A stretch of DNA of 64,000 nt. Source: Bacteroidales bacterium. GTDB lineage: Bacteria; Bacteroidota; Bacteroidia; Bacteroidales; DTGW01. The notes under the pieces were generated by a model. The model made no database searches, had not been told where the DNA came from, and was given only the letters and a program-made list of their open reading frames with translations. Shown piece after piece: positions 451-15,832 of this stretch (position 1 is its first letter; every line of letters begins with the position of its first letter). Where the stretch lies: assembly GCA_035374585.1 (NCBI GenBank), contig DAOSPF010000006.1, positions 5,408 through 69,407 of the forward strand, written 5' to 3'. Position numbers and translations under genes: made by a program.

Positions 451-1614
451 TTAATTCAAATTTTTAGAAGATAGTTTAACGAATAACGGAACAGATGCCA
501 GTTGCATTACTACCGAGAACGCAATTAGCCATATAATAGACATATCATATAGCCAGCCCATTAAAAAGCTTCCCAGAAACCAGAATAAGCCAAAAACTGC
601 ATTAAAAACCCCAAACCCGGTTGCTTTTTTATCGGCGGGCAATATGGATGACAGGACAGCCCTTACGACAGATTCCTGTGCAGCCATGCCCACGCCCCAG
701 CAAACCATTCCGGCTATGGCTGTGTAAAAATTGCCCATAAATACTAACGGGGCAAACAATAAAGATAGCAATGTACTGCCAATAAGTACTTTTATACCAT
801 GTTTATCAAACAACCTGCCCAGCAACAAAGCGGCCAATGCATCGACACCCATTGCAATGGCATACATTACAGGAATCCATTGGGTAGTAACCTGTCCGGT
901 TTTGTTAAAGTGGAATGCTATAAGCGGATAATCTGCAAACCCCGCAGCAATAAGCGATACGGCTGCCAGATAAATCCAGTAAAACTTTTTTGGAAAAACA
1001 AGTTTTGGCATGTTGTTTTTATCTTCCAAATGTTCGGTCCTTGGGTAGTTTAGCCTTGCAACAACCAATATTGTTAAGGCTATTAAGGCCGGGATAAGTA
1101 ATATCCCGAATGATTTAGCGTAATTGCCCGAAAAGAAAAACACAGCGCCAACGATAATTGGCCCTGTAACTGCCCCTATCTGGTCGAGCGCTTCATGCAC
1201 GCCAAAAGCCTTACCATGACCTATTGAAGACGAGGCATGAGAAAGCATCACATCTCTTGCAGGGTTACGGATAGCCCTTCCGGTGCGTTCCAGAATCATT
1301 AACACGGCTGCTATCTGCCAATTTCCGGCAAGGGCAAGTGCCGGTACTGCTAAAAGGTTGATGGCATAACCGACAAATGTTATAGTCCAGTATTGCTTTG
1401 TTTTGTCAGCAATAATACCAGAGGCTAACCGAATGGTATAACCCATGAGTTCGCCAAAACCGGCAATAAACCCGACAACTGTTGCGCTTGCCCCTAATAT
1501 GCCCAGAAACTGGCCTGTAATAGCCCGTGCCCCTTCATGGGTCATATCAGAAAACAGGCTGACAATGCCAATAAGTAATACAAAAGCCCAGGGAGTTTTT
1601 TTTATAAACTTCAT
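451..1614 (-). CDS. MFS transporter (unknown substrate)
   Basis: 387 aa, about 12 predicted hydrophobic helices. The N-terminus has FSDMTHEGARAITGQFLG, typical of one MFS subfamily. It lies downstream of fluoride riboswitch copy 2. Confidence 0.85.
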   Translation of the reverse strand: MKFIKKTPWAFVLLIGIVSLFSDMTHEGARAITGQFLGILGASATVVGFIAGFGELMGYTIRLASGIIADKTKQYWTITFVGYAINLLAVPALALAGNWQIAAVLMILERTGRAIRNPARDVMLSHASSSIGHGKAFGVHEALDQIGAVTGPIIVGAVFFFSGNYAKSFGILLIPALIALTILVVARLNYPRTEHLEDKNNMPKLVFPKKFYWIYLAAVSLIAAGFADYPLIAFHFNKTGQVTTQWIPVMYAIAMGVDALAALLLGRLFDKHGIKVLIGSTLLSLLFAPLVFMGNFYTAIAGMVCWGVGMAAQESVVRAVLSSILPADKKATGFGVFNAVFGLFWFLGSFLMGWLYDMSIIWLIAFSVVMQLASVPLFVKLSSKNLN

Positions 1615-1854: not shown

Positions 1855-1881
1855 AAATGACTGGTTTTAATAAAATTAAAA

Positions 1882-1931
1882 CTACAGGAGTCATCAGTCA
1901 TTTACGACAATTCAAGGTGAACCCCATCACC
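1882..1931 (-). promoter_or_regulatory. fluoride riboswitch (crcB motif), copy 2
   Basis: The minus strand reads GGUGAUGGGGUUCACCUUGAAUUGUCGUAAAUGACUGAUGACUCCUGUAG. It matches the conserved GGnGAUGGnGUUCnCC ... CUGAUGAnUCCU core of fluoride aptamers. A hairpin follows (CUG-GUUUUAAU/AUUAAAAC-CAG) that recruits the aptamer 3' end. Confidence 0.75.
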
Positions 1932-1939
1932 ACACAAGA

Positions 1940-1947
1940 CAAAGGTA
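1940..1947 (-). promoter_or_regulatory. Bacteroidota -7 promoter box TACCTTTG for riboswitch 2
   Basis: TACCTTTG (TAnnTTTG consensus) lies 6 nt upstream of the aptamer. The same box and spacing occur at riboswitch 1. A second TAAATTTG box sits at 1947..1954. Confidence 0.45.
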
Positions 1948-1991
1948 CAAATTTATAATTTTGAAAAATGGATGTTGTTGTTAAAAAGAGC

Positions 1992-2028
1992 TAAAAATGC
2001 GCGGAAATTTTCACTGAAGCTTCCGCGC
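1992..2028 (-). terminator. intrinsic terminator after eno
   Basis: 8-bp GC-rich stem GCGCGGAA/TTCCGCGC (1999..2028), followed on the minus strand by AUUUUU. It lies 9 nt after the eno stop. Confidence 0.6.
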
Positions 2029-2036
2029 CGTAGATT

Positions 2037-3317
2037 TTACCTGTTTTTAAAAGCTGCAATGCCTGCAAATTTTGAGTTTTTCCCAAGTTCATGTTCAATG
2101 CGCATGAGTTGGTTGAATTTTTCAATACGCTCGCCACGGCAACCGCTGCCAGTCTTGAGATGTCCGGCATTGACAGCAACTGTCAGGTCTGCAATAAACG
2201 TATCGGGGGTTTCGCCGCTGCGGTGCGATACAAAGCAATTGTAACTGTTTTTGTACGCCAGTTCAATAGTTTCAAGCGTTTCTGTTACTGTCCCAATCTG
2301 GTTCAGTTTTATAAGAATAGAATTGGCTACACCTTTTTCAATGCCTTCAGCTAATATTGCCTTGTTAGTACAAAACAGGTCATCGCCTACTATCTCAATT
2401 TTGTTTCCAAGTGCTTTGGTCAGATTTTTCCATCCATCCCAGTCGTTTTCGGCCAGGCCGTCTTCAAGTAGCACAATAGGATATTGGTTTGTCCAGCTTT
2501 CCCAAAGTTTTATAAGCTCATCGCCCGTAATTAATTTGCCTGTACTTTTGAACATTTTGTATTTGCCATCTTCCCAAAGTTCGCTGGCAGCAGGGTCTAT
2601 ACATATACTAACTTCATTTCCGGGCTTATATCCGGCCTTATTGATAGCTTCGAGGATGACTTCTACAGCTTCTTCATTCGATTTGAGGTCAGGGGCAAAA
2701 CCACCTTCATCACCAACGCCAGTGCTGTAGCCTTTAGCCTTTAACACCCCTTTTAATGTATGGAAAACTTCAACACCCATACGGATGGCTTCGGTAAACG
2801 AAGGTGCACCATGCGGGGCAATCATAAATTCCTGAAAGTCCACGTTGTTATCGGCATGTTTCCCGCCGTTGATAATGTTCATACAGGGAACAGGCAACAA
2901 ATAAGCATTGCTCCCGCCTAAATATTGGTAAAGTGGCATCCCGGCGCTCATGGCTTTAGCACGGGCATAGGCCATTGACACTCCAAGAATGGCATTGGCC
3001 CCTAATTTTGATTTGTTTTGTGAACCGTCCAGATTAATCATAAAATAATCAAGTTCACGCTGGCTAACAAAACATTTTCCTTCGATTTCTTTAGCAATGA
3101 CTTTGTTTACGTTTTCAACGGCTTTCAACACGCCTTTACCTCCGTAGCGTTTTTTGTCACCATCACGCAGTTCGTAAGCCTCACGTTCTCCGGTAGATGC
3201 ACCGCTTGGGACCATTGCCCGGGCTTTTGTGCCATCTTCTAACTCTAAATTTACCTCAATGGTAGGATTGCCCCTCGAATCGAGTATTTCAATTGCTTCA
3301 ACTTTAATGATTTTCAT
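2037..3317 (-). CDS. eno: enolase (phosphopyruvate hydratase)
   Basis: 426 aa. [22 protein letters not shown]...[10 protein letters not shown]...[18 protein letters not shown] are canonical enolase signatures over the full length. Confidence 0.97.
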
Positions 3318-3644
3318 CCGTAAATAATTTTTTAATAAGGTCGGATGGAACTCGCATGATGAATTTTCATCCTTGTTTGTGTTTAACGAATCATGCTCGT
3401 TTCATGGCAGTATGTTTTTGAATTAAAACTAAATAACAACTAAATGTTGAATCCAATCAATAAACAATTTATTTCAGCTAAGGTTAATCCTAATATTGAA
3501 TTTTATTTATCTAAACCAACTTCTCTTGTATGCCTAAGGCTTGTGCTTTAGTTTAATTTCATTAAATGAAATGTAAGTATCTGAAATGCAGATGAATATA
3601 GCTTGTGCGTGTGTCTTCGCAGATTTATTAGTAGCAGGTAAATT

Positions 3645-5153
3645 TTATATTCCAGCATCGGGATTGTCAAATATCTTGTTGTACAAATCCTTTCCAAAGC
3701 TGGTTTGCAGTGGTTCCCCTTCGACCAGCTTAAAGGTCCGCGCCCCGTCAGCTTGTCTCTCAGCCCTGAGGAACAAGGCATTTTCTAACTTTCTAACGTA
3801 AAAACTTTGGGCAAAATCGTACAAATGGGTGACAAAAAAAACTTTTACCCCCTTTTCTATTAAGGCATTTACTATTTGTCTCCCTATTTCGGAGCCTTCT
3901 CTTTCGTTGGTGGCTGCAAACGACTCGTTAAAGAGGATCATGGAATGTGATGATAAATTGTCGGCAATGCTGCTCATCCTGCTTAGTTCTTCATCAAGTT
4001 TTCCGCTGTTCATGGCCGAATCTTCTTCTCTTTTGAAATGAGAAAACAACTGGCTACAGGTATTAGCCGAAAAAGAAGCGGCAGGTACAAACATCCCGCA
4101 CTGCATCATCAGTTGGGCAAGGCCAATACTCCGCAAAAAAGTAGATTTGCCTCCCTGGTTTGCCCCGGTAATTATCACCAGGTTTTTGTTTTCGGCTATA
4201 GCATCATTGGCCACTACCTTTTGTTTCATAGCCAAAGCGAGGGATACATCATACAAGCCGCGAAAAACGTGTGTTCGAAGGTGCCCAGGCAAGGGTTGGG
4301 GAAACGAGCAATCAGCCCCCAGGCTGGCAAGCTGTCCGTGCAAATTCAAACAACCTGTGTAGAAGGCTATTTCAGTCTTTAACATACTGAAAAAGCTGAA
4401 AATGTGTTCCATAGATTGTGCAAGGGCATTGGCTACAACATTGACCCCCTCGTCTTTTATTTCCCTCAATGCCCTTGCCCCGCTCTCGTCGCGTGGATGG
4501 ACATTGAAAGTGTATCCTGGCTTTTTGCGCGGAAAAAGCATTTGCACCCATCCTTGTTTTTGTTGAGGGAGCTTGCAAAGCTGGTAAGGGTAGCCTTTGT
4601 TTCCTTTTCCCAGTTGGGTGTTGAACAAAGCCCCATCGTGAAACTCAAGTTCTTTGATATGTTTCCAGGCTTCAGCCATAAAATCTTCATCCAACTCTTT
4701 TTGGAGCATTGCAAAAAACCTGGAAAAGCCCTTTGATTGAAAATGAGAGGCATGTTCATCTGCCAGCGCTTTTAATTGTTTGAGATAACCCAGCAAATCT
4801 TTCAAGGAAGCAATAGAGCTATAAAGTACCGATGATGGTGATGATGAAAGAAACCACCAATGTTCGTTCCTTGACAATAGGGCTTCGGTGGACAACCTGT
4901 ATATTTCCCTAACTACAAGTTGGTTTTCAATGCTATCTTTCAGGATGTCCTGGCGGTATAATATGGTTTCAATATCATTGAATGTGCCTGACAGGAGAGC
5001 TTCTTTAGCTATTTTGTAGATAAATTCATCGCCCGAAGCCATTGTGGCAAATAATGTCCCCAATTCTAAGTCTTGAACCAATGCAGCGCTGTTCGGCAGA
5101 AGTTTCTTCCGGGTTTCAAAATTATCTTTTTCGAACATCAGAAAAACTTTCAT
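3645..5153 (-). CDS. MutS-related ATPase (domain V only; no mismatch-binding or Smr domain), paralog B
   Basis: 502 aa. Walker A GANQGGKSTFLRSIG and MutS-type block MILFNESFAATNEREG. The helical N-terminal part lacks MutS domains I and II. Confidence 0.85.
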   Translation of the reverse strand: MKVFLMFEKDNFETRKKLLPNSAALVQDLELGTLFATMASGDEFIYKIAKEALLSGTFNDIETILYRQDILKDSIENQLVVREIYRLSTEALLSRNEHWWFLSSSPSSVLYSSIASLKDLLGYLKQLKALADEHASHFQSKGFSRFFAMLQKELDEDFMAEAWKHIKELEFHDGALFNTQLGKGNKGYPYQLCKLPQQKQGWVQMLFPRKKPGYTFNVHPRDESGARALREIKDEGVNVVANALAQSMEHIFSFFSMLKTEIAFYTGCLNLHGQLASLGADCSFPQPLPGHLRTHVFRGLYDVSLALAMKQKVVANDAIAENKNLVIITGANQGGKSTFLRSIGLAQLMMQCGMFVPAASFSANTCSQLFSHFKREEDSAMNSGKLDEELSRMSSIADNLSSHSMILFNESFAATNEREGSEIGRQIVNALIEKGVKVFFVTHLYDFAQSFYVRKLENALFLRAERQADGARTFKLVEGEPLQTSFGKDLYNKIFDNPDAGI

Positions 5154-5157
5154 GGCC

Positions 5158-6690
5158 TTAAGGTATAATGCGTTTTTTCAATTCACTGTATGTAAGCTGG
5201 TATTTTTCAGCTACCGATATTGCATAAGCCAAGCCATTGGCCGGCATCCTTGAGAACTTGAAAGTGCGTTGTGACGGGTCGCCCGAAACTACTGCGCCAA
5301 CCATGCTCACCGTTTTTTCATTGAACGATGCCAGCTCATCTATAAATGTTACCCAAACACAAAGTACATCAAGCCTGGTCAAATCCTCCATAATCTTTTT
5401 GCTCAGAAAAATACCATCTTGTAATGTAGTAGAGGTCAGTATTTCGTTCATGATGACAATTGTATCGGGGGTGCAATGCCCTAATATCCAATGTAGCCTT
5501 GCCAGGTCGTCTTCCAGCTTGCTTCGCAGGTTCAGTACATTTTCTTCCTTTTCGAAATGGGTAAAAATATTGTTGCAAAGAAAAAGCTTTGCCCTACTGC
5601 CGGGAACAGGGAGCCCGAGCCCTGCAAGGTAGTGCAACTGCCCAAATGTGCGGGCAAAAGTTGTTTTTCCCCCTTGGTTTGGGCCTGTAACGACCAAAAT
5701 ACGTTCATGGCCTTTGAGGTAAAAATCGTTGGCCACTACGGCTTTCTTTTCACTTACGAGCTTATGGGCCAAAGGCAGGTCAAAACAAGCTGTAACATCA
5801 ATTTCCTTGTCAACAGCCGAAACCTGCGGATAGCAAAACTCCAGGCCAGCCTTTTTTATATTTTCGATATACTCGAAGTAAGCCAGGTAAAACTGCACTT
5901 CACGGTCGAACCTGACAATGGTTTCGTCCTGAAAACGGGTATTCCCTTTGTAAAATGCATCAAGACGGGCAAAAGCATCGGGGTTCAAATATGCAACCCC
6001 ATCCAGGATTTTGGCCTCCACGTGGTTCATGCCCAATGGATATGAGAGCCCGCTTCTGTAATCTTTTACATCGCCTTGCTTGAATTTTGCAAAAGTAGCT
6101 TGTACTTCTTCTGTATAATCGTCACCCGGCTGAAAATCCAATACCCTGACACGTAGCTCCTTGATATGTACACTGTATTTTATTGAAGATAATTCATGTA
6201 TTATTGCCCTGGCTTCTGCAAGAAGGTTTTTAAATTGCAAAGATTCTGTGTAACTTGTGAGGTAGTTACAGAAGGTAATGAAACCCCGCGATTTTATGGG
6301 CAAATGGGGCAAATTTTTAGCCAACGATTCCATGGCTTGGCCATAAAAGATGACAATATCCAGAAACACCCGTTCTTTATGGTATTGATAGTATAATTTT
6401 TCTGTTTCGGCAAGCTGTTTGCGGATATTGCGCATATCTCCCTCGAAAGCTTTTAAATACCTGTATAAGTCCTGGCGTTCAATATCTTGCATTACCTCCT
6501 GGCGGTATTTTATATCTTCTGTGTTTGCCAACAAGGTATAAAAATAGGGCTTAAGGTTGTATTCTTCTTTACCTTTAAGGGCTGTATCTACCACCTGGTT
6601 GATGTTCAAATCAACCATAAATGCTGGCTCTTCAAGATGTAAACTGTCATCCGGGACAGTGCTGGCAAACAATATGCTTTCAAAAACCAT
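5158..6690 (-). CDS. MutS-related ATPase (domain V only), paralog A
   Basis: 510 aa. Walker A GPNQGGKTTFARTFG and block IVIMNEILTSTTLQDG. There is a 4-nt gap to paralog B. Confidence 0.85.
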   Translation of the reverse strand: MVFESILFASTVPDDSLHLEEPAFMVDLNINQVVDTALKGKEEYNLKPYFYTLLANTEDIKYRQEVMQDIERQDLYRYLKAFEGDMRNIRKQLAETEKLYYQYHKERVFLDIVIFYGQAMESLAKNLPHLPIKSRGFITFCNYLTSYTESLQFKNLLAEARAIIHELSSIKYSVHIKELRVRVLDFQPGDDYTEEVQATFAKFKQGDVKDYRSGLSYPLGMNHVEAKILDGVAYLNPDAFARLDAFYKGNTRFQDETIVRFDREVQFYLAYFEYIENIKKAGLEFCYPQVSAVDKEIDVTACFDLPLAHKLVSEKKAVVANDFYLKGHERILVVTGPNQGGKTTFARTFGQLHYLAGLGLPVPGSRAKLFLCNNIFTHFEKEENVLNLRSKLEDDLARLHWILGHCTPDTIVIMNEILTSTTLQDGIFLSKKIMEDLTRLDVLCVWVTFIDELASFNEKTVSMVGAVVSGDPSQRTFKFSRMPANGLAYAISVAEKYQLTYSELKKRIIP

Positions 6691-6749
6691 CTTAATACCT
6701 CCATCGGGGTTTAAACAACATTTTTCAACCTAAGCTCATAGCCCTTACT

Positions 6750-7220
6750 TTATCTCCTTAGGGTTGCAATAATCCTTTTCGGATTTAACAACAGTTCGAG
6801 GGCATCGACAATGCTAAAACAAACAATATCGGCTGCCATAATGCTTTTGGCCGAAGCACCTTCTTTTTGTATTACGGCAATACTAAGCGCGCTGCTTTTG
6901 AGCATGAGGGCATCATTTGCCCCGTTGCCAATGGCAACTACATTTTCAGCGCCTAAGCTAATTGTATATTTTTCTTTCTGAATATCCTGCATAGATAGCC
7001 CCAATATCTCGATAGAACAGTTTAGGCCTGACAATTGGCCCTTAGCAGAGCCAAAAGTGTCAGCTGTCAGTACATAGATGTTTAACTTACTGCCTATTTG
7101 GCCGATGAGTTGCTTAACTCCATCTATAAGCTTGCCGTCTATGGCCAGTGTCCCGTTATAATCGAGTACCAGATGTGCCAGCTCTATTTTTTTATATCCG
7201 GGAATATCAATCGCTATCAT
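6750..7220 (-). CDS. HAD-superfamily protein, soluble P-type-ATPase-like (COG4087-like)
   Basis: 156 aa. Motif I LVLDYNGTLA (DxNGT), C-terminal GNGANDALML (HAD motif III), ending ...IIATLRR. Confidence 0.7.
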   Translation of the reverse strand: MIAIDIPGYKKIELAHLVLDYNGTLAIDGKLIDGVKQLIGQIGSKLNIYVLTADTFGSAKGQLSGLNCSIEILGLSMQDIQKEKYTISLGAENVVAIGNGANDALMLKSSALSIAVIQKEGASAKSIMAADIVCFSIVDALELLLNPKRIIATLRR

Positions 7221-7243
7221 ACTTTAATCAATTAAGGCAGATG

Positions 7244-8488
7244 TTATTTACTCAAAGACAGCCCGTAAGCAATGCTGTTGAAATTGTCGCCCATGCGGAT
7301 TTTATGAGGCCCAAACAACTTTTCGAAGATATCTCTGATGGGCACCACAGATGCGCTCCCTCCTGTAAGGAATACTGTATCAATATCGGCTGCCTTGACA
7401 TTTGCGTTCTCCATTAATGATAAAACGCAGTGTTCAATTTTATTGGTTTCGTTATTTATAAAGTTACGAAACTCTTCAAGGGTCATAAGTTCTCTGATGT
7501 TGATTATGTTGCGGGCAAACTCTACCATGGTTTCTGTTTTTGACGAAAGTTCAATTTTGGCTTTTTCTATCTGTTGAAAAAGGGCATATACAAGGTTGTT
7601 GTCTATAAGCGCCATTAAGTCTTCCAGCCTTTTGTCGCGGCCAGAAAATATGTAATAGTTGTTTAAGTCCCTACGGAGCTTGGTTTCTTTGAGAAGAAAT
7701 GAGCGTTCCCATTTTTTGAGCTCGTGGTGAATGGTGGTAGGCACGTCAAGCTCTTTGTTGTATGAAGCATATTTGACCCCTCTGCCCAGCAACGGGGTTA
7801 GTTTATGCCACATAGTCTGGGAGTCGAACATATCGCCGCCAATATAAAGCCCTCCGTTTGCAATTATATCTCCCTTGCGGTCTTCAGCGTTTATCCGGTC
7901 GGGGCCAAGTTCCATGATGGTAAAGTCGGAAGTGCCCCCTCCAAAGTCTGCTACCAAAACCCTCTCGTGCTGAGTCAAGGAGCTTTCATAAGAGAATGCT
8001 GCAGCTATAGGCTCGTAAAGAAGCTTTACGTCTTTAAAACCTGCATTGGAAGCAGCTTTAAGCAGTCTTTTGACAGCTATTTCTTCTTTTTCGGGGTCTT
8101 CAGAAAAAACAACCGGACGGCCAAGTACCACTTGTTCAATTTCGTGACCTATAGCCTTTTCGGCTTGCTGTTTGAAATGTTTAATAATTAAAGCAGCCAG
8201 TTCATCAGGTGTAAACCTTTTGCCAAAAATAAAAGTATGTATAAAGTTTTTCTGTTTTAACAATGTTTTTATCGATTTTAAAAGGCGGCCGCTCATATCT
8301 GAACTAACATATTCATTGATAGCTGCTTTTCCAACCGAATATACATAATCGTTCGTGTTTTTAAAATGCAACACTGAGCTGTCATTTTCTATAAAAATAC
8401 TTTTACGTGTATGAATATCTGTAATGGCAATAGCCGTGTTAGAGGTCCCAAAATCCAGCCCACACTGGTACTTATTCAAAATCATCAA
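7244..8488 (-). CDS. Hsp70-family ATPase, nucleotide-binding domain only (YegD-like)
   Basis: 414 aa. Phosphate-1 GLDFGTSNTAIA, phosphate-2 DFGGGTSDFT, adenosine motif VFLTGGSASVVPI. There is no substrate-binding domain. Confidence 0.85.
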   Translation of the reverse strand: MMILNKYQCGLDFGTSNTAIAITDIHTRKSIFIENDSSVLHFKNTNDYVYSVGKAAINEYVSSDMSGRLLKSIKTLLKQKNFIHTFIFGKRFTPDELAALIIKHFKQQAEKAIGHEIEQVVLGRPVVFSEDPEKEEIAVKRLLKAASNAGFKDVKLLYEPIAAAFSYESSLTQHERVLVADFGGGTSDFTIMELGPDRINAEDRKGDIIANGGLYIGGDMFDSQTMWHKLTPLLGRGVKYASYNKELDVPTTIHHELKKWERSFLLKETKLRRDLNNYYIFSGRDKRLEDLMALIDNNLVYALFQQIEKAKIELSSKTETMVEFARNIINIRELMTLEEFRNFINNETNKIEHCVLSLMENANVKAADIDTVFLTGGSASVVPIRDIFEKLFGPHKIRMGDNFNSIAYGLSLSK

Positions 8489-8506
8489 TAATACTTTTTA
8501 TAAAAA

Positions 8507-8974
8507 TTATTTTTTCCACAATTTAAAAGGGGATTTCAACAGGTTGGAATTATAATACCTTGCATCATCAGATACTTCCTTGCCAACCCATTGGGGCAGT
8601 TCAAATTGTTCGCCTTCAGAATCCAATTCTATTTCGGCCACAATAAGCCCTTCGTTGTCCCCAAGAAATTCGTCCACCTCCCAGGTTTTGCTTTTGTATG
8701 TGATGGTATAGCGTTTTTTTTCAATTACGCCATCGGCTAACTTGTTGATAATTTCGGCAGCTTCATTGGCAGGGATTGGGTATTCGTACTCTTCTCTCGA
8801 TATATTGACCGTTTTTCCTTTAATGGTGATAAACCCATTATCACCCATTACCCTTACACGGATTGTCTTGTCAATACTACTATACAAATAGCCCTGTATT
8901 ATCCTTTCACCTTTCCCTTTAGCAATATTCTGCCAGTTTTCTATATCGACAATAAATTTTCTTTCTATTTCCAT
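8507..8974 (-). CDS. CYTH-domain protein (triphosphate tunnel metalloenzyme)
   Basis: I place the start at MEIERKFIV (the ExExK motif of CYTH). The longer ORF, starting at 9064, would overlap the USP gene. Confidence 0.8.
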   Translation of the reverse strand: MEIERKFIVDIENWQNIAKGKGERIIQGYLYSSIDKTIRVRVMGDNGFITIKGKTVNISREEYEYPIPANEAAEIINKLADGVIEKKRYTITYKSKTWEVDEFLGDNEGLIVAEIELDSEGEQFELPQWVGKEVSDDARYYNSNLLKSPFKLWKK

Positions 8975-8985
8975 AAAGTCAGTGT

Positions 8986-9411
8986 CTATTTTCGGGCTAT
9001 TAGCACGTTGCATTTGGCATTTTCGCTTACTTTGTCTGTAACATGCCCCAAATCGTTGCCCCACAAGCCTGAGTGGCCTTTACAGCCCATCACTATCAAG
9101 TCAACATGGTTTTTTTCGGCATACTCAACTATCAATTTTGCCGGGTTGCCTTGCAAATGGGCATATTCTATTTCAATGCCTTCACTTTTTGATATATTGT
9201 GGAGGTCCTTTTTCAACTTGGCCGAAAAGCTGTCAATGGCTTTCGATTCTTCGTCAATTTCGGCCACAGTTTCGTGATAGTAGGCCCTGTACCCCCCAAT
9301 CCATAAAGCTGTCAACTTTGCTTTCATGGCCTTGGCAAATGCCAATGAATTGTTCAATGCTGTTTTGGCCCCTTCGGAACCGTCGTAAGCTACTAAAATG
9401 TGTTTGTACAT
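8986..9411 (-). CDS. universal stress protein (UspA family)
   Basis: 141 aa. MYKHILVAYDGSEGAK...DLIVMGCKGHSGL...GHVTDKVSENAKCNVLIA is a typical USP fold signature. Confidence 0.9.
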   Translation of the reverse strand: MYKHILVAYDGSEGAKTALNNSLAFAKAMKAKLTALWIGGYRAYYHETVAEIDEESKAIDSFSAKLKKDLHNISKSEGIEIEYAHLQGNPAKLIVEYAEKNHVDLIVMGCKGHSGLWGNDLGHVTDKVSENAKCNVLIARK

Positions 9412-9413
9412 GG

Positions 9414-10601
9414 TTATTTCCTCCTTTTTGTTATGTTTTTCTTACTCATTCTTCTAAGCCTGCCCCAGGCTATCATGGTATGTATTTCGGGTTGAAAGAA
9501 TTTTTGTGCTATGAGTGTAGGTATTATGGCGCTAAGAATTACTACTGTAACCAGGATGGTGTATTGTTTTTGGTCAATAAGGTGGTTGTTTAGCCCAAAC
9601 AATGCCGATATGGTGCCAAAGGTAAGGCCGGTGGCCATCAGCAGTGTGGTATAAGAAGATTCTTTTTTGCGCATCTGGAACGACCTTGCCAACGGATATA
9701 CCCCAATAAATTTGGTAACTATTTTAATAACCAGGAACAATGTAATAATGCCCAGCGAAACCCATATTAATGGCAGCGAAACGTACAAGCCGGCTTTCAT
9801 AAAGTAAAACGGGGTAAAAATGGTAAAGGCAATGGTACGCATACGGTCAACCAAGGTTTTGTCGCGCACAAATACCCCGGCCACAACTAAGCCTATTAAA
9901 TAAGCCGGAAGCACAGCTTCGCTCTTTGCTGTGGTGGCCAAACCTCCCAAAAAGAACAACACGAGCAGGATAAATTTCACCTCAGGCTGGCTTACTTTAT
10001 TTGTACCCAAATGTCCTATAAGGTATTTTGTCCATCGTGGCATAAACCAAAGCATAACGCACATTACAACAACAAAAGCCACCATCCAAAGGTTGAAATT
10101 GGCAAACAAAACGCCCAGGGCAAGCACTGTCCCAAAATCGGTAATAAAACAGGCTGCGAGTATCATTTTGCCCATGGATGTATCGCCAAGCTTTTTTTCA
10201 ATCATAACTGCATATACAACGGCAACAGATGTAGTAGATAATGCTATCCCGGCAATCTGGGCCTGGTGTATCCCCCAGCCAAAAACATACTGTGCAATGA
10301 GCCAAACACTGGCAAATGGAACAACAAAAGACAATATGCCAATAGCAAGACTGGCTTTTAAGTTTGCTTTTAGTGAAGCCGGGTCAATTTCAGCGCCCGC
10401 CAAAAAGGTTAGAACACCACTACCCAGCATGGCCAAAAAATCTATCCATTGGGTAGTTTGGTGGATGCCTAAAAAATTTCCGGCTATGACACCTACCAAT
10501 ATCTCGATAAGGGCAACAGAAATACCTACACGGATAGATATTAAGCTGGCCACTAAAGCCATGCCCATCCACATTGCTGCAATTAACCAAATGTTATCCA
10601 T
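9414..10601 (-). CDS. cation:proton antiporter (CPA/Kef-type Na+/H+ exchanger family)
   Basis: 395 aa polytopic membrane protein with the Na_H_exchanger-like helix pattern. It is 2 nt from the USP gene. Confidence 0.88.
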   Translation of the reverse strand: MDNIWLIAAMWMGMALVASLISIRVGISVALIEILVGVIAGNFLGIHQTTQWIDFLAMLGSGVLTFLAGAEIDPASLKANLKASLAIGILSFVVPFASVWLIAQYVFGWGIHQAQIAGIALSTTSVAVVYAVMIEKKLGDTSMGKMILAACFITDFGTVLALGVLFANFNLWMVAFVVVMCVMLWFMPRWTKYLIGHLGTNKVSQPEVKFILLVLFFLGGLATTAKSEAVLPAYLIGLVVAGVFVRDKTLVDRMRTIAFTIFTPFYFMKAGLYVSLPLIWVSLGIITLFLVIKIVTKFIGVYPLARSFQMRKKESSYTTLLMATGLTFGTISALFGLNNHLIDQKQYTILVTVVILSAIIPTLIAQKFFQPEIHTMIAWGRLRRMSKKNITKRRK

Positions 10602-10613
10602 AACACGTAATTT

Positions 10614-10982
10614 TTACCATTTAAAAAAACTTTTCTTTTCGCCTTGTTTGTAAAGGACTATGTTTGCTTTTTCCATAGTTATCATACAACCATAACGCAG
10701 CTTTTCAAACCAGGGGAGTATTTTCTCGGCAAACTTTTCAATCTTTTCCGATTCGTCAACTATCTCAATTACCACCGGGAGTTTTTCGGTAAATTCCCAA
10801 AATTTAATAGAACGCACCACGCTGCTTGACCCGTAGCCCATCACCCCTTTCAGCACGGTAGCCCCTGCCAGTCCATATCGTTTGGCTGCAAAAACAACCA
10901 TTTCGTACAGTAAGTTATGTTTGAATTTGTCGGTATTACTGATAAAAATCCGCAATAATTTGGCTTCTCCTTTTATTTCCAT
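10614..10982 (-). CDS. DUF190 (PII-like) protein, usual crcB partner
   Basis: 122 aa. LLRIFISNTDKFKHNLLYEMVVFAAKRYGLAGATVLKGVMGYG resembles DUF190. There is a 2-nt gap after crcB. Confidence 0.8.
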   Translation of the reverse strand: MEIKGEAKLLRIFISNTDKFKHNLLYEMVVFAAKRYGLAGATVLKGVMGYGSSSVVRSIKFWEFTEKLPVVIEIVDESEKIEKFAEKILPWFEKLRYGCMITMEKANIVLYKQGEKKSFFKW

Positions 10983-10984
10983 GG

Positions 10985-11362
10985 TTATATTATTTTAGTG
11001 ATTAGGTTTCCCAAATAAGTGGCCAAAATGCCAATAAAAACACTCAGGCTTGTATATAAAGCAAAATAGAAAATATTACCATCGCGAAGCAGCGCAACAT
11101 TCTCGTTGGCAAAAGTCGAAAATGTAGTAAACCCGCCACAAAAGCCAACCGTCAGGAACATGCGCAACTCTGAAGACATCGCGTTGCCCCGTTCTGAAAT
11201 GCCATAAAACAACCCAATAAGAAAGCAGCCAAGAATGTTGACAACAAATGTTCCGTAAGGAAAAGACGCAATAAAGGTATTTTGAATAAAACGTGAAGTA
11301 AGAAAACGTGAGATGCCCCCCAGGAAACTCCCCGAACCAATAAACAAAAGTATTTTTATCAT
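10985..11362 (-). CDS. crcB: fluoride channel CrcB/FluC
   Basis: 125 aa, 4 [12 protein letters not shown]...[12 protein letters not shown] are CrcB signatures. It is immediately downstream of riboswitch 1. Confidence 0.93.
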
Positions 11363-11400
11363 ATATCCTGCATACTTTAAGGTTAAACAATAAAGTCATA

Positions 11401-11448
11401 CAGGAGTTATCAGCTTATTTAAGGCGGTTCGAGGCTAACCCCATAGCC
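11401..11448 (-). promoter_or_regulatory. fluoride riboswitch (crcB motif), copy 1
   Basis: The minus strand reads GGCUAUGGGGUUAGCCUCGAACCGCCUUAAAUAAGCUGAUAACUCCUG, ending 38 nt before the crcB AUG. The segment in between can form UCCUG...ACUUUA/UAAAGU...CAGGA, which competes for the aptamer 3' strand. Confidence 0.85.
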
Positions 11449-11454
11449 AGACAC

Positions 11455-11462
11455 CAAAGGTA
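11455..11462 (-). promoter_or_regulatory. Bacteroidota -7 promoter box TACCTTTG for riboswitch 1
   Basis: TACCTTTG lies 6 nt upstream of the aptamer 5' GG and just downstream of the preceding gene's stop (11472). Confidence 0.45.
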
Positions 11463-11471
11463 GGAAAAAAA

Positions 11472-11969
11472 TTAAAAACGGAAAGCTATTAATAGCTCAT
11501 TTGTAGAATAATACCCCGTATGCCTGAAAAACTCTTTACCTTCTTTATCTAAAAGCACTTGTGAAGATATGGCTGCAATGCCAAAGTATTTCATCAACCG
11601 CTGATTTTCGGGCAGCATGATGTTTATAAAGATTACGTTTACGCGGTCGGGGAAGCGGGCCTTTATTTCGGCCATAACCTGTTCCATACGTTTGCAGGCC
11701 GAACAGCCTTTTGCCCCAAATTCGAGAAATGTAAACTGGTAGCTTAGCCCATTTTTAGCGTAGTTGTAGGCCGAATCGACAAAAGCCGGTACCGAGTGTT
11801 GAACTTCGGGGCCAGCTTGTGTTTTAATGGCTTTTGATGCGTAATTGTTTAATGTATCTTTGAATACGAAAAGCAGGACAAAAAACAATACCGACAGCAC
11901 CATAAAAGCCGCCGACAGCGCCTGTTTTGTTTTAGAAGTCAACCGCAGCCTTTTCATAAACAGCTTCAA
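11472..11969 (-). CDS. membrane-anchored thioredoxin-family protein
   Basis: 165 aa. N-terminal TM helix, then FGAKGCSACKRM (CxxC) and a Trx-fold C-terminus. Confidence 0.75.
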   Translation of the reverse strand: MKLFMKRLRLTSKTKQALSAAFMVLSVLFFVLLFVFKDTLNNYASKAIKTQAGPEVQHSVPAFVDSAYNYAKNGLSYQFTFLEFGAKGCSACKRMEQVMAEIKARFPDRVNVIFINIMLPENQRLMKYFGIAAISSQVLLDKEGKEFFRHTGYYSTNELLIAFRF

Positions 11970-12309
11970 TTACTTCGCTGGTAACAGGGGTTTGGCCTTT
12001 CACATAACCGAGGTCGGTCATACGCATGTATTTGTAATTGGTAATGCCTGCTTTATCAAGTATCTTTTTGCCACAATCAACCGGGCAGCCATCTATTAGT
12101 AGAAGGTCTGCCTCCTTGAACATCTCGATGGTGGGTTTCACATCGGCTGCTACAGCCGCAAGGCAGTTCATTTTGCGGATATTATTGTCCCTCAGTTTTC
12201 GGGCAACCAAGTCCGATATTTGGCCCAAATCGCATGCCCCCGAACAGGCTATTACAACATATTCGCCGCTGCCACAAAGGCAGGTTTTTACGTTATTATT
12301 TGTTTCCAT
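11932..12309 (-). CDS. DGC-domain putative zinc-binding protein
   Basis: 125 aa. VIACSGACDLGQISD ... LIDGCPVDCGKK contains the eponymous DGC motif. Confidence 0.7.
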   Translation of the reverse strand: METNNNVKTCLCGSGEYVVIACSGACDLGQISDLVARKLRDNNIRKMNCLAAVAADVKPTIEMFKEADLLLIDGCPVDCGKKILDKAGITNYKYMRMTDLGYVKGQTPVTSEVIEAVYEKAAVDF

Positions 12310-12313
12310 ACAT

Positions 12314-13399
12314 TTAAAGTTTAAATTCTGTACTAAGCATTATTATATTGGTATGTTTTTTATCGGACTGTTTGGCTTTCCACCCCTGATAATTAATTGA
12401 AAGATTTACAGTTTTAACAGGTTGGTAATGAATCCCCATTATATAGGCTTTACCTTCTTTTGCAATATTCCAGCTTTGTGATTGACCAGATAAGGTATTG
12501 GATAACACATTGTCGTAGCGGGCAAAGATTTCAATTTTAGGATTCACAATGTAAGTGCCAAACAAAGAATATCCCCAAAAATCATGGTCATTGTAGTTTA
12601 GGTTGTTCAACCTGTAATTAACGTCAAGTCCTGCACGGAAAACTTTATCCAACTGGTAACCTGTGAAAAACGAAAAGAGGTGTTGCGTTGCATTATCGCT
12701 CGGGTCGCCCGATTGTGTATTGTCATAATACAGGCGGGTTAACAATCCTTTTAAAGGTTTAATGTCAATACCTGTTGCATATTTTACTTTACCGTAATCA
12801 TCTTGTTTAAACCTTATACCTTCTCCGTTGGTAACAGCAACGTCAAAAGCCAAAATGTTATTTACCTTAACAAACCCGATTGCCCCGAAATCGCCACTTG
12901 CAGTTCCATAATATCTGTCTTGGAAAGTTTCATAAACATAGCGATAGCCCCAAAACTTTTCCTGAGTGATATAATGATTTTGCAAAATACCACCCACTTG
13001 CAAAGTAAACATTTCAGAAGGTTTCCATTGAATAAAAGCAAACTTCAGGAATGCTGTATAATAGCTTCCTTCCTTGGAAGTGTTATTGACTGTATAATTT
13101 TTACCTGTAGAATCGGTTACAACAATATTACCAACAGTAGTTGGCCTACCAGCAGCATCAATTATCAATGTACCTGAAAAACTATTTGAAAAATTATAAT
13201 TATACCCAAAGTGGGCACGGGTAATACCAAAGCTTACAGGTTGTTTGGCATCTTTAGTTGCGTCAAGCTTGGAATACCCAAACACTTGCACAATAGGTTT
13301 GCCCGAAGGTTTAAAAGTTGTATCGGTATCTTGCCCGAATATTTGTACACTATAACATATACATGTGAATAGCAACAAAAACCTAAGTTTTGTTTTCAT
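12314..13399 (-). CDS. outer-membrane porin (beta-barrel)
   Basis: 361 aa. Signal peptide, alternating beta-strand pattern, C-terminal ...LSTEFKL. It abuts the upstream gene with a 0-nt gap. Confidence 0.7.
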   Translation of the reverse strand: MKTKLRFLLLFTCICYSVQIFGQDTDTTFKPSGKPIVQVFGYSKLDATKDAKQPVSFGITRAHFGYNYNFSNSFSGTLIIDAAGRPTTVGNIVVTDSTGKNYTVNNTSKEGSYYTAFLKFAFIQWKPSEMFTLQVGGILQNHYITQEKFWGYRYVYETFQDRYYGTASGDFGAIGFVKVNNILAFDVAVTNGEGIRFKQDDYGKVKYATGIDIKPLKGLLTRLYYDNTQSGDPSDNATQHLFSFFTGYQLDKVFRAGLDVNYRLNNLNYNDHDFWGYSLFGTYIVNPKIEIFARYDNVLSNTLSGQSQSWNIAKEGKAYIMGIHYQPVKTVNLSINYQGWKAKQSDKKHTNIIMLSTEFKL

Positions 13400-14170
13400 T
13401 TACGGTTTAATTCTATTGTATATACCTGTTAAATATTGGTCGTAATAGCCTTTAATGGTTTCTTCCACTTCTGCCATTGGTTTTACCGGAACAAGGTCGG
13501 CTACTTCGGCATAAGGTAAACCTGAGTTGAAAAGGGTTTCGGTTGTACCCCAAAGCATATTTGAGATAGTTTTAGCGGCCTCTTGTTCATCCATGCCAAA
13601 CGAAACGGCCAGTTCTTTAAGCTTTTGCAACTGGAAGTTAAAGTAAGTATGCCCCATGGCGCTAATAACAGCATAAGCTTCAATTTTGTTGTCGGCTACT
13701 TCGGGCTCATAGCCTAATGGCCGAAACAGTTCGAGAAATGCTTTCTTTTTATCAGCATCAAAAGAAGCAGAAAACGAAACCGGGTTAACGCCTTTGTTTA
13801 CAATGGTTGAAGCGCTGGGGTTCATGCGGGCAATGTTGGCAAAACCACCCAGCAAAGCAGTCAGTTTTTCAATAGTAAACTTTGGCGCTAACGAAAGCAA
13901 TACCGAACCGGGTTGCAGGCTGCCTTTGATTTTCTCAATGGTCTCCATTACCATTGGGGGGTGAACGGAAAGAATAACAAGTTCGGCTGTTGCAGCTTCA
14001 TCAACACTGGTTGTAGTGGTAACCTGTGGAAATTTAGCTTTTACAGCTTTTAATGCTTCTTCGCTTACATCATACACAACTACTTTGTCAAAACGTACAT
14101 TGGCATTGTTAAATGCCTGGGCTAAAATGCGGGTAATACGGCCGCCGCCAATAAAACTGATTGTTTTCAT
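13400..14170 (-). CDS. pyrroline-5-carboxylate reductase-like NADP oxidoreductase
   Basis: 256 aa. N-terminal Rossmann motif ISFIGGGRITRILAQAF and a ProC-like C-terminal dimerisation region. Confidence 0.75.
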   Translation of the reverse strand: MKTISFIGGGRITRILAQAFNNANVRFDKVVVYDVSEEALKAVKAKFPQVTTTTSVDEAATAELVILSVHPPMVMETIEKIKGSLQPGSVLLSLAPKFTIEKLTALLGGFANIARMNPSASTIVNKGVNPVSFSASFDADKKKAFLELFRPLGYEPEVADNKIEAYAVISAMGHTYFNFQLQKLKELAVSFGMDEQEAAKTISNMLWGTTETLFNSGLPYAEVADLVPVKPMAEVEETIKGYYDQYLTGIYNRIKP

Positions 14171-14195
14171 TTTTTTTAATATTAAGGGTTAAAAA

Positions 14196-14420
14196 TTATT
14201 CAACATATTTTGCAATGGTTTTCTTTATTATGGGCATAATCACCATCACCACCGGAAGGGCTGCCACGAAGGCAAGTCCCCATGATTTCATCCATTTGGC
14301 AATAAATCCGGCATGGTAGCCAAAGTTTACCGATACACTTACAAACGTTACTACAAATGTCATTACCAAAACCATGATGATTAATGTAACTTTCATTTCA
14401 TTCTTTTTTGCGATTTTCAT
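14196..14420 (-). CDS. DUF2798 small membrane protein
   Basis: I chose the start at MKIAKKNE to avoid overlap with the permease. There are two TM helices and WMKSWGLAFVAALPVV, which is DUF2798-like. Confidence 0.6.
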   Translation of the reverse strand: MKIAKKNEMKVTLIIMVLVMTFVVTFVSVSVNFGYHAGFIAKWMKSWGLAFVAALPVVMVIMPIIKKTIAKYVE

Positions 14421-14433
14421 TTTTTTTATTGTT

Positions 14434-15774: not shown

Positions 15775-15832
15775 TACTTCTTTTGTTTTATTTAGAATTT
15801 CGTCTAAACCCGAAATATGTTTTCAAATTTTT

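Follow-up and report, generated by a model that had tools for sequence, protein, structure and literature searches.

Previous studies described a fluoride riboswitch super-regulon (Weinberg 2010, Baker 2012, Sherlock & Breaker 2020) and a riboswitch-led fluoride operon of E. cloacae FRM, ppaC-uspA-eno-gpmA-crcB-orf5249, which was found by experiment to be co-transcribed, with each gene contributing (PMC5533749). In the 64,000-nucleotide stretch of a Bacteroidales genome analysed here (the window), we found the same aptamer class as in the super-regulon, and the cargo common to both comprises CrcB, a Na+/H+ antiporter, Usp, enolase, HAD and mutS. However, a single aptamer in the window heads fused modules that usually have separate aptamers, and the unit adds a CYTH-Hsp70-like pair that is not otherwise fluoride-linked. 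Like the E. cloacae operon, the predicted unit is a riboswitch-led polycistron that mixes an exporter, Usp and a fluoride-sensitive glycolytic enzyme, although the E. cloacae operon lies in a proteobacterial genomic island and lacks MutS4, HAD, CYTH and Hsp70-like genes.

The RNA heading the gene cluster is a genuine fluoride riboswitch. Aptamer 1 (crcB motif, 11394..11457, minus strand) matched Rfam RF01734 (Fluoride) over its full length (model positions 1-64) with 48.5 bits (E = 2e-10; gathering score = 34 bits) and our own aptamer model R1 with 67.9 bits, which bears out the close match to the motif claimed in an earlier sequence-only reading that had pointed to the Rfam model as the check. 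The Bacteroidota-type -7 promoter box TACCTTTG (11455..11462, minus; exact match) lies 6 nt upstream of P1, whose first base is 11448, as that reading had also noted, and the identical octamer is present 8 nt before P1 of a second aptamer (1940..1947, minus). Although TAnnTTTG occurs no more often across the window than expected (92 matches observed vs 95 by chance), the like position before both aptamers gives the box weight. The MFE and centroid folds of 11340..11452 contained an expression-platform hairpin of ~14 bp (11366..11405, minus), which takes in UCC of CUCC (11403..11405), the 3' pseudoknot strand of aptamer 1, and stops 4 nt short of the crcB AUG. No U-run was found 3' of this hairpin; therefore, the platform more probably acts through translational control or polarity than as an intrinsic terminator.

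Nine minus-strand ORFs follow with gaps of 2, 12, 2, 11, 18, 23, 59 and 4 nt, and Pfam assigned them to CrcB, DUF190, Na_H_Exchanger, Usp, CYTH, HSP70 (nucleotide-binding domain only), a weak HAD and two MutS_V. The sequence-only reading had given the same gaps and had seen no hairpin plus U-run between the genes; indeed, the ORF coordinates agree, and a hairpin-plus-U scan of the minus strand found no candidate between any two of the nine genes. No internal aptamer was found within the run in a search with filters off. The proximal genes are crcB (Fluc fluoride channel, 10985..11362, minus; Pfam CRCB 105 bits, and TIGR00494 92.9 bits, above the cut-off of 80.45), the P-II-like DUF190 gene (10614..10982, minus; 101.6 bits), a usual CrcB partner that is paired with it in many of the surveyed loci, a CPA2-type Na+(K+)/H+ antiporter (9414..10601, minus; Na_H_Exchanger 137.6 bits) and a universal stress protein, Usp (8986..9411, minus; Pfam Usp). 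Antiporter-Usp pairs are aptamer-led in L001, L011, L033, L051, L062 and L080, and the earlier description of CrcB, DUF190 and antiporters as classical fluoride-riboswitch cargo agrees with a review (PMC11139923).

The two genes described earlier as truncated MutS ATPases are the pair MutS4A (5158..6690, minus; Pfam MutS_V 69 bits) and MutS4B (3645..5153, minus; MutS_V 79 bits), named in 2007 by Lin, Nei & Ma (PMC2190696). As in that subfamily, the ATPase (MutSac) domain is the one part that sequence comparison can recognise, and the two ancient paralogues are adjacent, A then B, and scattered over distant lineages including Thermoanaerobacter. MutS4A and MutS4B share 27 % identity, over the ATPase domain only. 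Profile searches found no domain I, domain II, nuclease or Smr in either protein, and both are MutS cores without the mismatch-binding and connector domains, with domains III, reduced IV and V plus an HTH assigned in MutS4A. The AF2 model of MutS4A (pLDDT 86.4) matched MSH2/MSH3/MutS/MutS2 in Foldseek (TMq 0.5-0.63). New here is that Asn occupies the Walker-B position of the Mg-binding Asp: by the alignments, which included T. thermophilus MutS2 and Taq MutS for the motifs of MutS4B, MutS4A has N415-E416 and an H-loop F449 (N415 and F449 invariant in 83/83 sequences), and MutS4B has N409-E410 and keeps the H-loop His443 (invariant in 76/76), so that the H-loop His is lost in A only. Such invariance suggests that the Asn is selected, and MutS4A/B would most likely be an obligate asymmetric heterodimeric clamp ATPase. 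In E. coli MutS, the D693N replacement disturbs Mg2+ coordination and the ATP switch. Judging by the entry title (PDB 3k0s) and the alignments, the same Walker-B Asp-to-Asn change is an engineered defect there and naturally invariant in MutS4. In MutS2, a ribosome-collision sensor and splitter (T. thermophilus core 7vuf, B. subtilis 7qv3), the MutS core likewise lacks domains I and II, and on the evidence of PMC10897456 and PMC11275761 MutS2 is a precedent for a MutS acting on other than DNA mismatches; however, it is a single-gene homodimer with the canonical DE in Walker B, whereas MutS4 is encoded by two genes, has NE there and is without KOW or Smr.

The MutS4 pair is recurrent fluoride-riboswitch cargo in many phyla. 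The 2007 account listed five bacterial and two archaeal carriers without regulatory context (PMC2190696), whereas we found at least 597 matching stretches in species-representative genomes, and a link to fluoride. Among 80 MutS4 loci from more than twelve phyla, both genes, wherever found, were adjacent and in the same order; the MutS4A stop and MutS4B start overlap by 4 nt in 66/75 loci, whereas the window has a 4-nt gap. In 47 of these 80 loci (E <= 0.01) an aptamer-led gene chain includes MutS4, which comes first in 33 and distally (2nd to 8th) in 14, and 172 aptamer-like matches were present in 1.44 Mb of MutS4 loci vs none in 86.6 kb of control loci. Of six weak matches to the model upstream of MutS4A, three fell below the Rfam cut-off, which makes the lower counts the safer choice; Rfam confirmed aptamers directly before MutS4A in L003, L008, L018 and L068, and in L008 (Thermoanaerobacter) a 17-pair terminator with a T-run overlaps the aptamer 3' strand just upstream of MutS4A. 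Separate aptamers lead CrcB and MutS4 in the Bacteroidota loci L062, L013 and L003, and also MFS in L062. Next in frequency as cargo come dynamin-like GTPases, in loci picked by MutS4 presence and with cargo frequencies biased towards MutS4 in consequence; these GTPases have canonical Mg-site motifs, and Walker-B DE is retained in the third MutS-like gene of L026, so the Asp-to-Asn theme is not general. The association of mutS with the fluoride riboswitch was already known: the original motif description included mutS, as the sequence-only reading had suggested, and proposed a link to DNA repair (Weinberg 2010, PMC2864571). The view of that reading that the distal cargo has no known role holds for function, but associations of mutS and HAD have been in the literature since 2010-2012. 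The MutS4 pair is therefore a widespread part of the bacterial fluoride response with an already known riboswitch association.

The other distal genes differ in how far they share this link. The 156-aa HAD protein (6750..7220, minus; weak Pfam HAD match), called a soluble P-type ATPase in sources, has more than 7500 homologues, mostly of exactly 156 aa, and is recurrent fluoride-riboswitch cargo, being aptamer-led in L026, L007 and L091. Its motif I (D20-x-N22-G-T24) and motif IV (G98-N99-G100-x-N102-D103) are invariant in 43 sequences, and N99 falls opposite the D in the AIGDGAND motif of P4-ATPases; a HAD with GNGxND in place of GDGxND is, on these alignments, new here. The CYTH gene (triphosphate tunnel metalloenzyme with an N-terminal EIERK signature, 8507..8974, minus; 62.2 bits) adjoins HAD in two further loci, L093 (Eno-CYTH-HAD) and L060 (HAD-CYTH-aptamer-MutS4A), and an Hsp70-like gene in the contig of P0121; it recurs only weakly as fluoride-linked cargo, each time beside HAD. 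The Hsp70-like protein (YegD-like, nucleotide-binding domain only, 7244..8488, minus; HSP70 106 bits) scored 201 bits against NF008673, below the cut-off of 331. Its gene was present in 0/80 MutS4 loci, its closest homologues (59-77 % identity) lie in six unrelated contexts with no fluoride genes, and no fluoride aptamer was found in the five contexts with DNA; it is probably a local passenger. The five distal genes, which the earlier reading had grouped as one possible module, are thus no single conserved block: co-occurrence with fluoride aptamers holds for the MutS pair and HAD, but not for the Hsp70-like gene, and weakly for CYTH.

MutS4B is followed by an AT-rich spacer of 327 nt (3318..3644, minus), in which no aptamer, Rfam family, minus-strand TAnnTTTG or terminator-like hairpin was found, and by an enolase gene (2037..3317, minus; Pfam Enolase_N and Enolase_C) that shares 87 % identity with the aptamer-led enolase of L003. 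Between aptamers 1 and 2, the minus strand has a single intergenic terminator-like site, an intrinsic terminator (1990..2028, minus) that folds into a 9-bp GC-rich stem, GCGCGGAAG/UUUCCGCGC, followed by UUUUU. Enolase is known riboswitch cargo (PMC11139923, PMC5533749), and it is probably the tenth gene of the aptamer 1 unit.

We consider it probable that this locus is a composite fluoride-stress operon, in which one aptamer-switched long mRNA carries an export arm and a MutS4/HAD non-export arm. Transcription would start just after the -7 box and enter the aptamer directly; without fluoride the hairpin would sequester the 3' pseudoknot strand and end just short of the crcB start codon, whereas bound fluoride would keep that strand in the aptamer and free the crcB start region. 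Up to this point the switch rests on sequence and folding. Translation of crcB, translational coupling over the short gaps and relief of polarity would then presumably express one long mRNA, which would join modules that are each led by a separate aptamer elsewhere: CrcB-DUF190-Na/H antiporter-Usp for export and pH, and HAD-MutS4A-MutS4B, with the CYTH-Hsp70-like pair captured between them and enolase probably the last part, up to the terminator. Since the platform has no U-run, the switch may act on crcB translation only, and the distal genes could then be constitutive or be expressed from promoters inside coding regions. It seems unlikely to us that riboswitch control stops at crcB, or perhaps at the fourth gene, and that internal promoters drive CYTH, Hsp70-like, HAD and the MutS pair independently of fluoride. 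The translational look of the platform, the non-fluoride contexts of Hsp70-like and CYTH homologues, and minus-strand TAnnTTTG matches inside the antiporter (9617), Hsp70-like (8224), MutS4A (6090) and MutS4B (5117) genes agree with such a split, but these matches occur at chance frequency, gaps of 2-59 nt leave no room for intergenic promoters, and terminators are absent. Moreover, the pair is aptamer-led in most surveyed loci and has no aptamer of its own here, so that the regulation found elsewhere could be reached by read-through only, and MutS4 stands at positions 4, 6 and 8 of long aptamer-led chains (L026, L069, L064).

Within the composite operon, MutS4A/B and the small HAD (GNGxND) would keep working, or report, once fluoride sequesters Mg2+ and forms Mg-fluoride phosphate mimics; fluoride is known to sequester Mg2+ and inhibit an ATPase (PMC12700350). 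Candidate clients of MutS4A/B are DNA, stalled ribosomes or a poisoned enzyme. A DNA-maintenance clamp, induced as fluoride stress damages DNA or disturbs replication or recombination, is the original 2010 suggestion (PMC2864571) and fits the role in DNA metabolism suggested in 2007 (PMC2190696) and the modelled MutS core fold with its levers, small clamp hairpin and C-terminal HTH. We regard it as a tentative possibility, as the domains absent from MutS4A/B include I, II, nuclease and Smr, the aptamer-led chains hold no MutL or other repair gene, and a MutS core is able to act on ribosomes, not DNA, as MutS2 shows (PMC10897456, PMC11275761). In the PDB, MutS4B is closest in sequence to the core of T. 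thermophilus MutS2 (E = 2e-18), the MutS2-disome complex 7qv3 and the core structure 7vuf are among the fold matches (TMt 0.57-0.60), and dynamin-like GTPases are co-regulated, all of which suit a MutS2-like remodeller of ribosomes or GTPase complexes that rescues fluoride-stalled translation. However, MutS1/MSH Foldseek scores are equally good, the neighbourhoods contain no ribosomal or RQC gene, and the KOW and Smr domains by which MutS2 is recruited to collided ribosomes (PMC10897456) are missing from MutS4, which leaves this role doubtful. Equally doubtful is a role along the lines of the earlier idea, in which the distal cargo supplies decoys, sensors, replacements or reactivases when phosphoryl-transfer enzymes such as enolase are poisoned by fluoride. 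An enolase gene is found within 10 kb in about 33/83 loci, often directly upstream, and the Asp-to-Asn changes at Mg-ligand sites of MutS4A/B and HAD are compatible with this, though no proof of it; but enolase and MutS4 are usually under separate aptamers (L016, L027, L036, L042, L045), so adjacency may mean a shared regulon only. The NCBIfam profile NF052383 (lysine 5,6-aminomutase reactivase ATPase KamC), by name a precedent for a MutS-type ATPase acting on an enzyme, gives weak matches to MutS4A and MutS4B, but the scores (54 and 74 bits; profile of ~508 positions) are far below the cut-off of 300 and cover domain V only, and we found no literature on KamC. A stoichiometric sink for millimolar fluoride would also be implausible.

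Beyond the terminator, aptamer 2 (1878..1940, minus; Rfam 44 bits vs the cut-off of 34), preceded by the second TACCTTTG box and with a hairpin that overlaps P3 and the 3' tail in its fold, leads an MFS transporter gene (451..1614, minus; MFS_1 81.5 bits), which it would control separately. This aptamer and its MFS gene, the enolase after the ninth gene and the terminator after enolase were absent from the earlier reading. The same MFS family (49-59 % identity) is aptamer-led in L001, L007, L049, L057 and L074.

The Rfam fluoride riboswitch model RF01734 gives a full-length match at 11394..11457 (minus strand) with 48.5 bits, above the gathering score of 34, which bears out the fluoride riboswitch that the sequence-only reading had proposed ahead of crcB (10985..11362). 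In the cmscan alignment of this aptamer, P1 is formed by GGCU/AGCC and P3 by GCCU/AAGC (including one non-standard pair), and GGGG (11439..11442) can pair with CUCC (11403..11406) as a pseudoknot with one G-U. The octamer TACCTTTG, taken as a -7 box in the same reading, is located at 11455..11462 and the first P1 base follows 6 nt on, as had been described; the same octamer precedes the second aptamer of the window at a similar distance. TAnnTTTG was rejected as stand-alone promoter evidence, since it is not enriched in the window (92 matches vs 95 expected), and inside coding regions it occurs at chance level. The crcB AUG lies 32 nt downstream of the aptamer, and a 14-bp platform hairpin (11366..11405), mutually exclusive with the pseudoknot strand (UCC is common to both), ends 4 nt before this AUG. 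Because this hairpin has no U-run, and because the start codon in other Bacteroidota loci follows only 10-27 nt after the aptamer, fluoride control is probably translational rather than by intrinsic termination. Upstream of the riboswitch, and unrelated to it, is a thiol/arsenic-type cluster (11472-16531, minus strand) with DsbD_2, an ArsP_1 permease, an F420_oxidored/P5CR-like protein, a 361-aa porin-like protein (no Pfam match), DGC and a thioredoxin-like protein; between the stop codon of the last and the promoter box of the riboswitch lie 10 nt.

Nine minus-strand ORFs are located behind the aptamer, and the gaps reported for them earlier (2, 12, 2, 11, 18, 23, 59 and 4 nt) were reproduced from the ORF coordinates. 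According to Pfam and NCBIfam, their products are CrcB, DUF190, a CPA2-type Na/H exchanger, Usp, CYTH, an Hsp70 NBD, a small HAD and two MutS domain V proteins. A purpose-written scan of the eight gaps found no hairpin with a U-rich tail between any two neighbouring genes, in agreement with the sequence-only reading; the shared strand, the short gaps and the lack of an internal terminator are what would be expected of a polycistronic unit of nine genes. A hidden internal aptamer ahead of HAD or MutS4A was ruled out, as the next best match with filters off scored 9.8 bits. The ninth gene is followed by a 327-nt spacer and enolase (2037..3317, minus strand). The spacer contains no aptamer, no TAnnTTTG on the minus strand and no terminator, and a structured RNA or riboswitch was rejected there because the Rfam matches were at chance level only. 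On the minus strand downstream of aptamer 1 and up to aptamer 2, the sole intergenic terminator-like structure found is a 9-bp GC-rich stem with UUUUU (1990..2028) directly after enolase. Since the only intergenic terminator comes after enolase and the spacer has no aptamer, -7 box or terminator, the transcription unit may comprise ten genes, enolase included.

The second aptamer (1878..1940, minus strand; RF01734, 44 bits vs gathering score 34) has the identical TACCTTTG box at 1940..1947 (minus) and is followed, after a 264-nt leader, by an MFS_1 transporter (451..1614, minus). The family of this transporter (49-59 % identity) is aptamer-led in several phyla, and may represent an unrecognised fluoride-related transporter. 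Aptamer 2, enolase and the terminator after enolase were absent from the sequence-only description.

Previous work defined the MutS4 subfamily as proteins with the ATPase domain only, with the paralogues MutS4A and MutS4B, unstudied in function, encoded by adjacent genes with overlapping stop and start codons and scattered among distantly related bacteria (Thermoanaerobacter is one of them) and in two acidophilic archaea; T. tengcongensis was listed as MutS4-positive (Lin, Nei and Ma 2007, PMC2190696). The window pair (MutS4A 5158..6690, then MutS4B 3645..5153) has MutS_V as the only Pfam match in both proteins, PDB sequence matches limited to residues ~280-500 of both, and 27 % identity between the two over 192 aa, in the ATPase domain only, vs 50-60 % among orthologues across phyla. 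The pair of a Thermoanaerobacter sp. (locus L008) is 55 % and 59 % identical to it, and with this locus as the sole proxy reference the window pair fits the published description of MutS4A/MutS4B. In 66 of 75 related loci, the MutS4A stop and MutS4B start codons overlap by 4 nt, so the overlap is a family trait and the window, with a 4-nt gap instead, is a minor variant. At least 8000 relatives of the first MutS-like protein are present in the database, and those of Moorella, Chloroflexota and Thermodesulfobacteriota are still 54-60 % identical; the pair is thus widespread and no oddity of the window.

Unlike MutS1, MutS4 is without domains I and II (no PF01624 or PF05188 match), and the window proteins reach only 66-84 bits on TIGR01070 and PRK05399, with cut-offs of 480-642. 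Unlike MutS2, they stop after the HTH (510 and 502 aa) with no Smr and no KOW domain, and score 76-77 bits on TIGR01069 (cut-off 400). The AlphaFold model built from 119 sequences (pLDDT 86.4, pTM 0.82) was used, and an earlier 20-sequence model (pLDDT 59.6) was discarded. Structure matches to MSH2, MSH3, MutS and MutS2 span the entire model (TMq 0.5-0.63; TMt 0.57-0.60 against the T. thermophilus MutS2 core). The predicted MutS4 fold is therefore that of a MutS core: the lever helices are there, only a beta-hairpin is left of the clamp, and the ATPase is joined by a helix-turn-helix at the C-terminus.

In Weinberg et al. (2010), mutS is already one of the genes given as following the crcB motif, and later reviews repeated "DNA repair proteins" as fluoride riboswitch cargo; the association is therefore old. 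The link is not mentioned in a 2024 review of fluoride resistance, and our literature searches found no functional study of a fluoride/riboswitch/MutS link. Among species-representative genomes, at least 597 stretches encode a relative of the first MutS-like protein, and 80 loci, chosen by MutS4 presence and spread over more than twelve phyla, were kept as the survey sample. In tblastn with the window proteins, the two MutS genes were always adjacent and in the same A-then-B order in loci holding both, and frequent neighbours were enolase (~33 loci), the MFS family of 451..1614, DUF190, CrcB, Usp and the Na/H exchanger. Our own covariance model, built from six Rfam-verified aptamers and giving rough E-values, produced 172 matches in 1.44 Mb of MutS4 loci, 0 in 86.6 kb of control loci, and nothing in the window beyond the two known aptamers. 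Rfam confirmed the aptamers before the MutS pair in four loci (L003, L008, L018, L068), and the three weakest own-model matches (22.4 bits or below) all failed its cut-off; because of this rejection, aptamer counts are given conservatively at E <= 0.01. At this threshold, the pair stands in an aptamer-led co-directional chain in 47 of the 80 MutS4-selected loci (first gene in 33, position 2 to 8 in 14). When all matches to E = 1 are admitted, 43/80 loci have an aptamer-like match that precedes the first MutS gene by at most ~310 nt, which drops to 34/80 once nine matches with E > 0.01 are removed. The Thermoanaerobacter locus has a textbook riboswitch architecture as judged from its sequence: aptamer, 17-pair terminator with T-run, Shine-Dalgarno and MutS gene, with the 5' arm of the terminator overlapping the 3' strand of the aptamer.

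In three other Bacteroidota loci examined (L062, L013, L003), the export module is led by one aptamer and the MutS4 pair by another, and the MFS of L062 has a third. The window pair has none of its own, and read-through from aptamer 1 would therefore be the only way to keep the regulation of the other genomes. Long fused chains occur elsewhere, with MutS4 at position 4 (L026), 6 (L069) and 8 (L064). If read-through from aptamer 1 reaches the MutS4 pair, control would pass to the distal genes via translational coupling and polarity, a step that we infer and regard as the weakest link of the claim of a nine-gene fluoride operon. The gene content and the riboswitch are real, and the window cluster is another, unusually fused member of a known fluoride regulon, which for the window itself is a modest result.

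The sequence-only reading had joined the five distal genes into one coherent module for fluoride-poisoned enzymes, of which MutS4A/B and the HAD held up, CYTH perhaps belongs, and the Hsp70-like gene does not. The HAD (6750..7220) is one of over 7500 family members, most of them exactly 156 aa long and named "soluble P-type ATPase" by the sources; it is 99 % identical to a protein from a Bacteroidales MAG and matches Pfam Hydrolase_3 with 21.5 bits (cut-off 20.9). Its motif I has the nucleophile D20 and G-T with Asn at +2 (DxNGT), and its motif IV is GNGAND (GNGxND), both invariant in 43 sequences; in P4-ATPases, the position of N99 is taken by the first Asp of GDGxND, which binds Mg. HADs are often riboswitch-associated (review PMC11139923), and this HAD is aptamer-led in L026, L007 and L091 and directly before MutS4A in L026 and L032. 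An aptamer-CrcB-DUF190-HAD-Eno-MFS-CLC fragment (L091 / L092 7460-14835) has a phage-type integrase and a transposase on its flanks, and could be a mobile island of fluoride resistance.

The window CYTH (Pfam 62.2 bits vs cut-off 23.2; EIERK at residues 2-6 of MEIERKF as the ExExK motif) recurs rarely in the surveyed loci, each time adjoining HAD: L093 8040-10471 (Eno-CYTH-HAD) and L060 11-911 (HAD-CYTH-aptamer-MutS4A). The Hsp70-like protein (7244..8488; 414 aa) is NBD only and YegD-like, with 103 bits on the DnaK model (cut-off 823) and no substrate-binding domain as compared with DnaK, and 201 bits on the YegD model NF008673, below the cut-off of 331. Its gene was found in none of the 80 MutS4 loci, and the six closest homologue contexts (59-77 % identity) have no fluoride genes and the five with DNA no aptamer, so the MutS pair, HAD and Hsp70 were rejected as a conserved block. 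CYTH-Hsp70-like adjacency had one further case, on the JGI contig of P0121, where a CYTH gene comes just before the 77 % homologue; in our reading, the CYTH and Hsp70-like genes are a small cassette that was captured between modules. CYTH appears as a small hub, and the window unites its arrangements with HAD and with the Hsp70-like gene. An anti-phage defence reading of CYTH, Hsp70-like, HAD and MutS was rejected, as PADLOC gave nothing meaningful (its only two matches were to P-loop or NBD fragments and scored near 20 bits).

Dynamin-like GTPases of ~600 aa rank second among the aptamer-led cargo of MutS4 neighbourhoods, with 24 genes, of which 13 have an aptamer immediately ahead. Some of these GTPases are fused to DUF6062, and G1, G3 and G4 are canonical; examples are L001 14782-16584, L026 6373-8181 and 13116-15029, and L027 13708-15549, among others. 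In the Bacteroidales locus L026 (6216-17702), a single aptamer leads a chain of at least ten genes, in the order dynamin-like GTPase, third MutS-like gene, HAD, MutS4A, MutS4B, dynamin/DUF6062, DUF211, VIT-like, PAP2 and MFS. Its third MutS-like gene encodes 443 aa with MutS_III and V and a canonical DE.

The nucleotide site was checked in 83 MutS4A and 76 MutS4B sequences, and its positions were set with MSH3, T. thermophilus MutS2 and Taq MutS as alignment references. Both paralogues have an intact Walker A, the Walker-B Asp is replaced by Asn in 83/83 MutS4A and 76/76 MutS4B, the H-loop His is Phe in every MutS4A and kept in every MutS4B, and the S-T-F signature-like motif reads G-K-L. An Asp-to-Asn change engineered at this site of E. 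coli MutS reportedly disturbs Mg2+ coordination. What was made there by design (PDB 3k0s, from the entry title) is natural in MutS4A/B. From this site pattern, together with low identity between A and B vs high identity among orthologues, we infer that MutS4A/B would be an old, obligate, asymmetric heterodimer. A regulon-wide Asp-to-Asn theme was rejected, since G1, G3 and G4 are preserved in the dynamin-like GTPases, and DE and the H-loop His in the third MutS-like gene of L026.

Published work shows that fluoride sequesters Mg2+, and that ClpX is disassembled and its ATPase inhibited by fluoride (PMC12700350). Based on these effects, on the motif changes of MutS4 and on the parallel change in the HAD, our preferred reading is that MutS4A/B may be a fluoride-induced heterodimeric clamp ATPase with an Mg site adapted to fluoride chemistry. 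Three candidate clients each have some support. DNA is the idea of 2010. Ribosomes are suggested by analogy with MutS2. Poisoned enzymes would fit the "KamC reactivase ATPase" model of NCBIfam, to which the MutS proteins are weakly similar; our literature searches found no functional study of KamC. We consider a joint reading rather improbable: the rebuilt Mg2+ sites of MutS4A/B and the 156-aa HAD would either let them go on cycling under Mg2+ loss or capping by fluoride or bind Mg-fluoride as a signal, and together with the co-regulated dynamin-like GTPases they would form a second, non-export fluoride arm of bacteria and archaea, which would repair or reset its target, be it a nucleoprotein or an enzyme.

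The lasting interest thus lies in the MutS4 family rather than in the window cluster. The link between mutS and the riboswitch is now tied to one defined family, MutS4A/B, with its strength and phylogenetic breadth shown, and the obligate A/B gene pair, the invariant Walker-B Asn, the H-loop His lost in A only and the Asp-to-Asn of the HAD are testable handles. If true, a fluoride-tolerant or fluoride-sensing clamp ATPase would extend the MutS family, with its roles in mismatch repair and ribosome rescue, by a new function, and would show intracellular fluoride damage beyond enolase and pyrophosphatase.

When characterizing the remaining aptamer-led cargo (L054 13071-13487, L045 15099-15854, L020 2601-3362, L064 4725-5672 and related), we observed a 139-aa HEAT_2 and zinc-ribbon protein, Metallophos phosphoesterases, stand-alone DUF6062, His_Phos_1, formate-hydrogen-lyase-type subunits (NADHdh, Proton_antipo_M, Complex1_49kDa, Oxidored_q6) and several clusters without a Pfam match. 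Moreover, aptamer-like matches cluster very densely in L049, L044, L085, L027 and L007, with five to eight per 21-kb locus on both strands.
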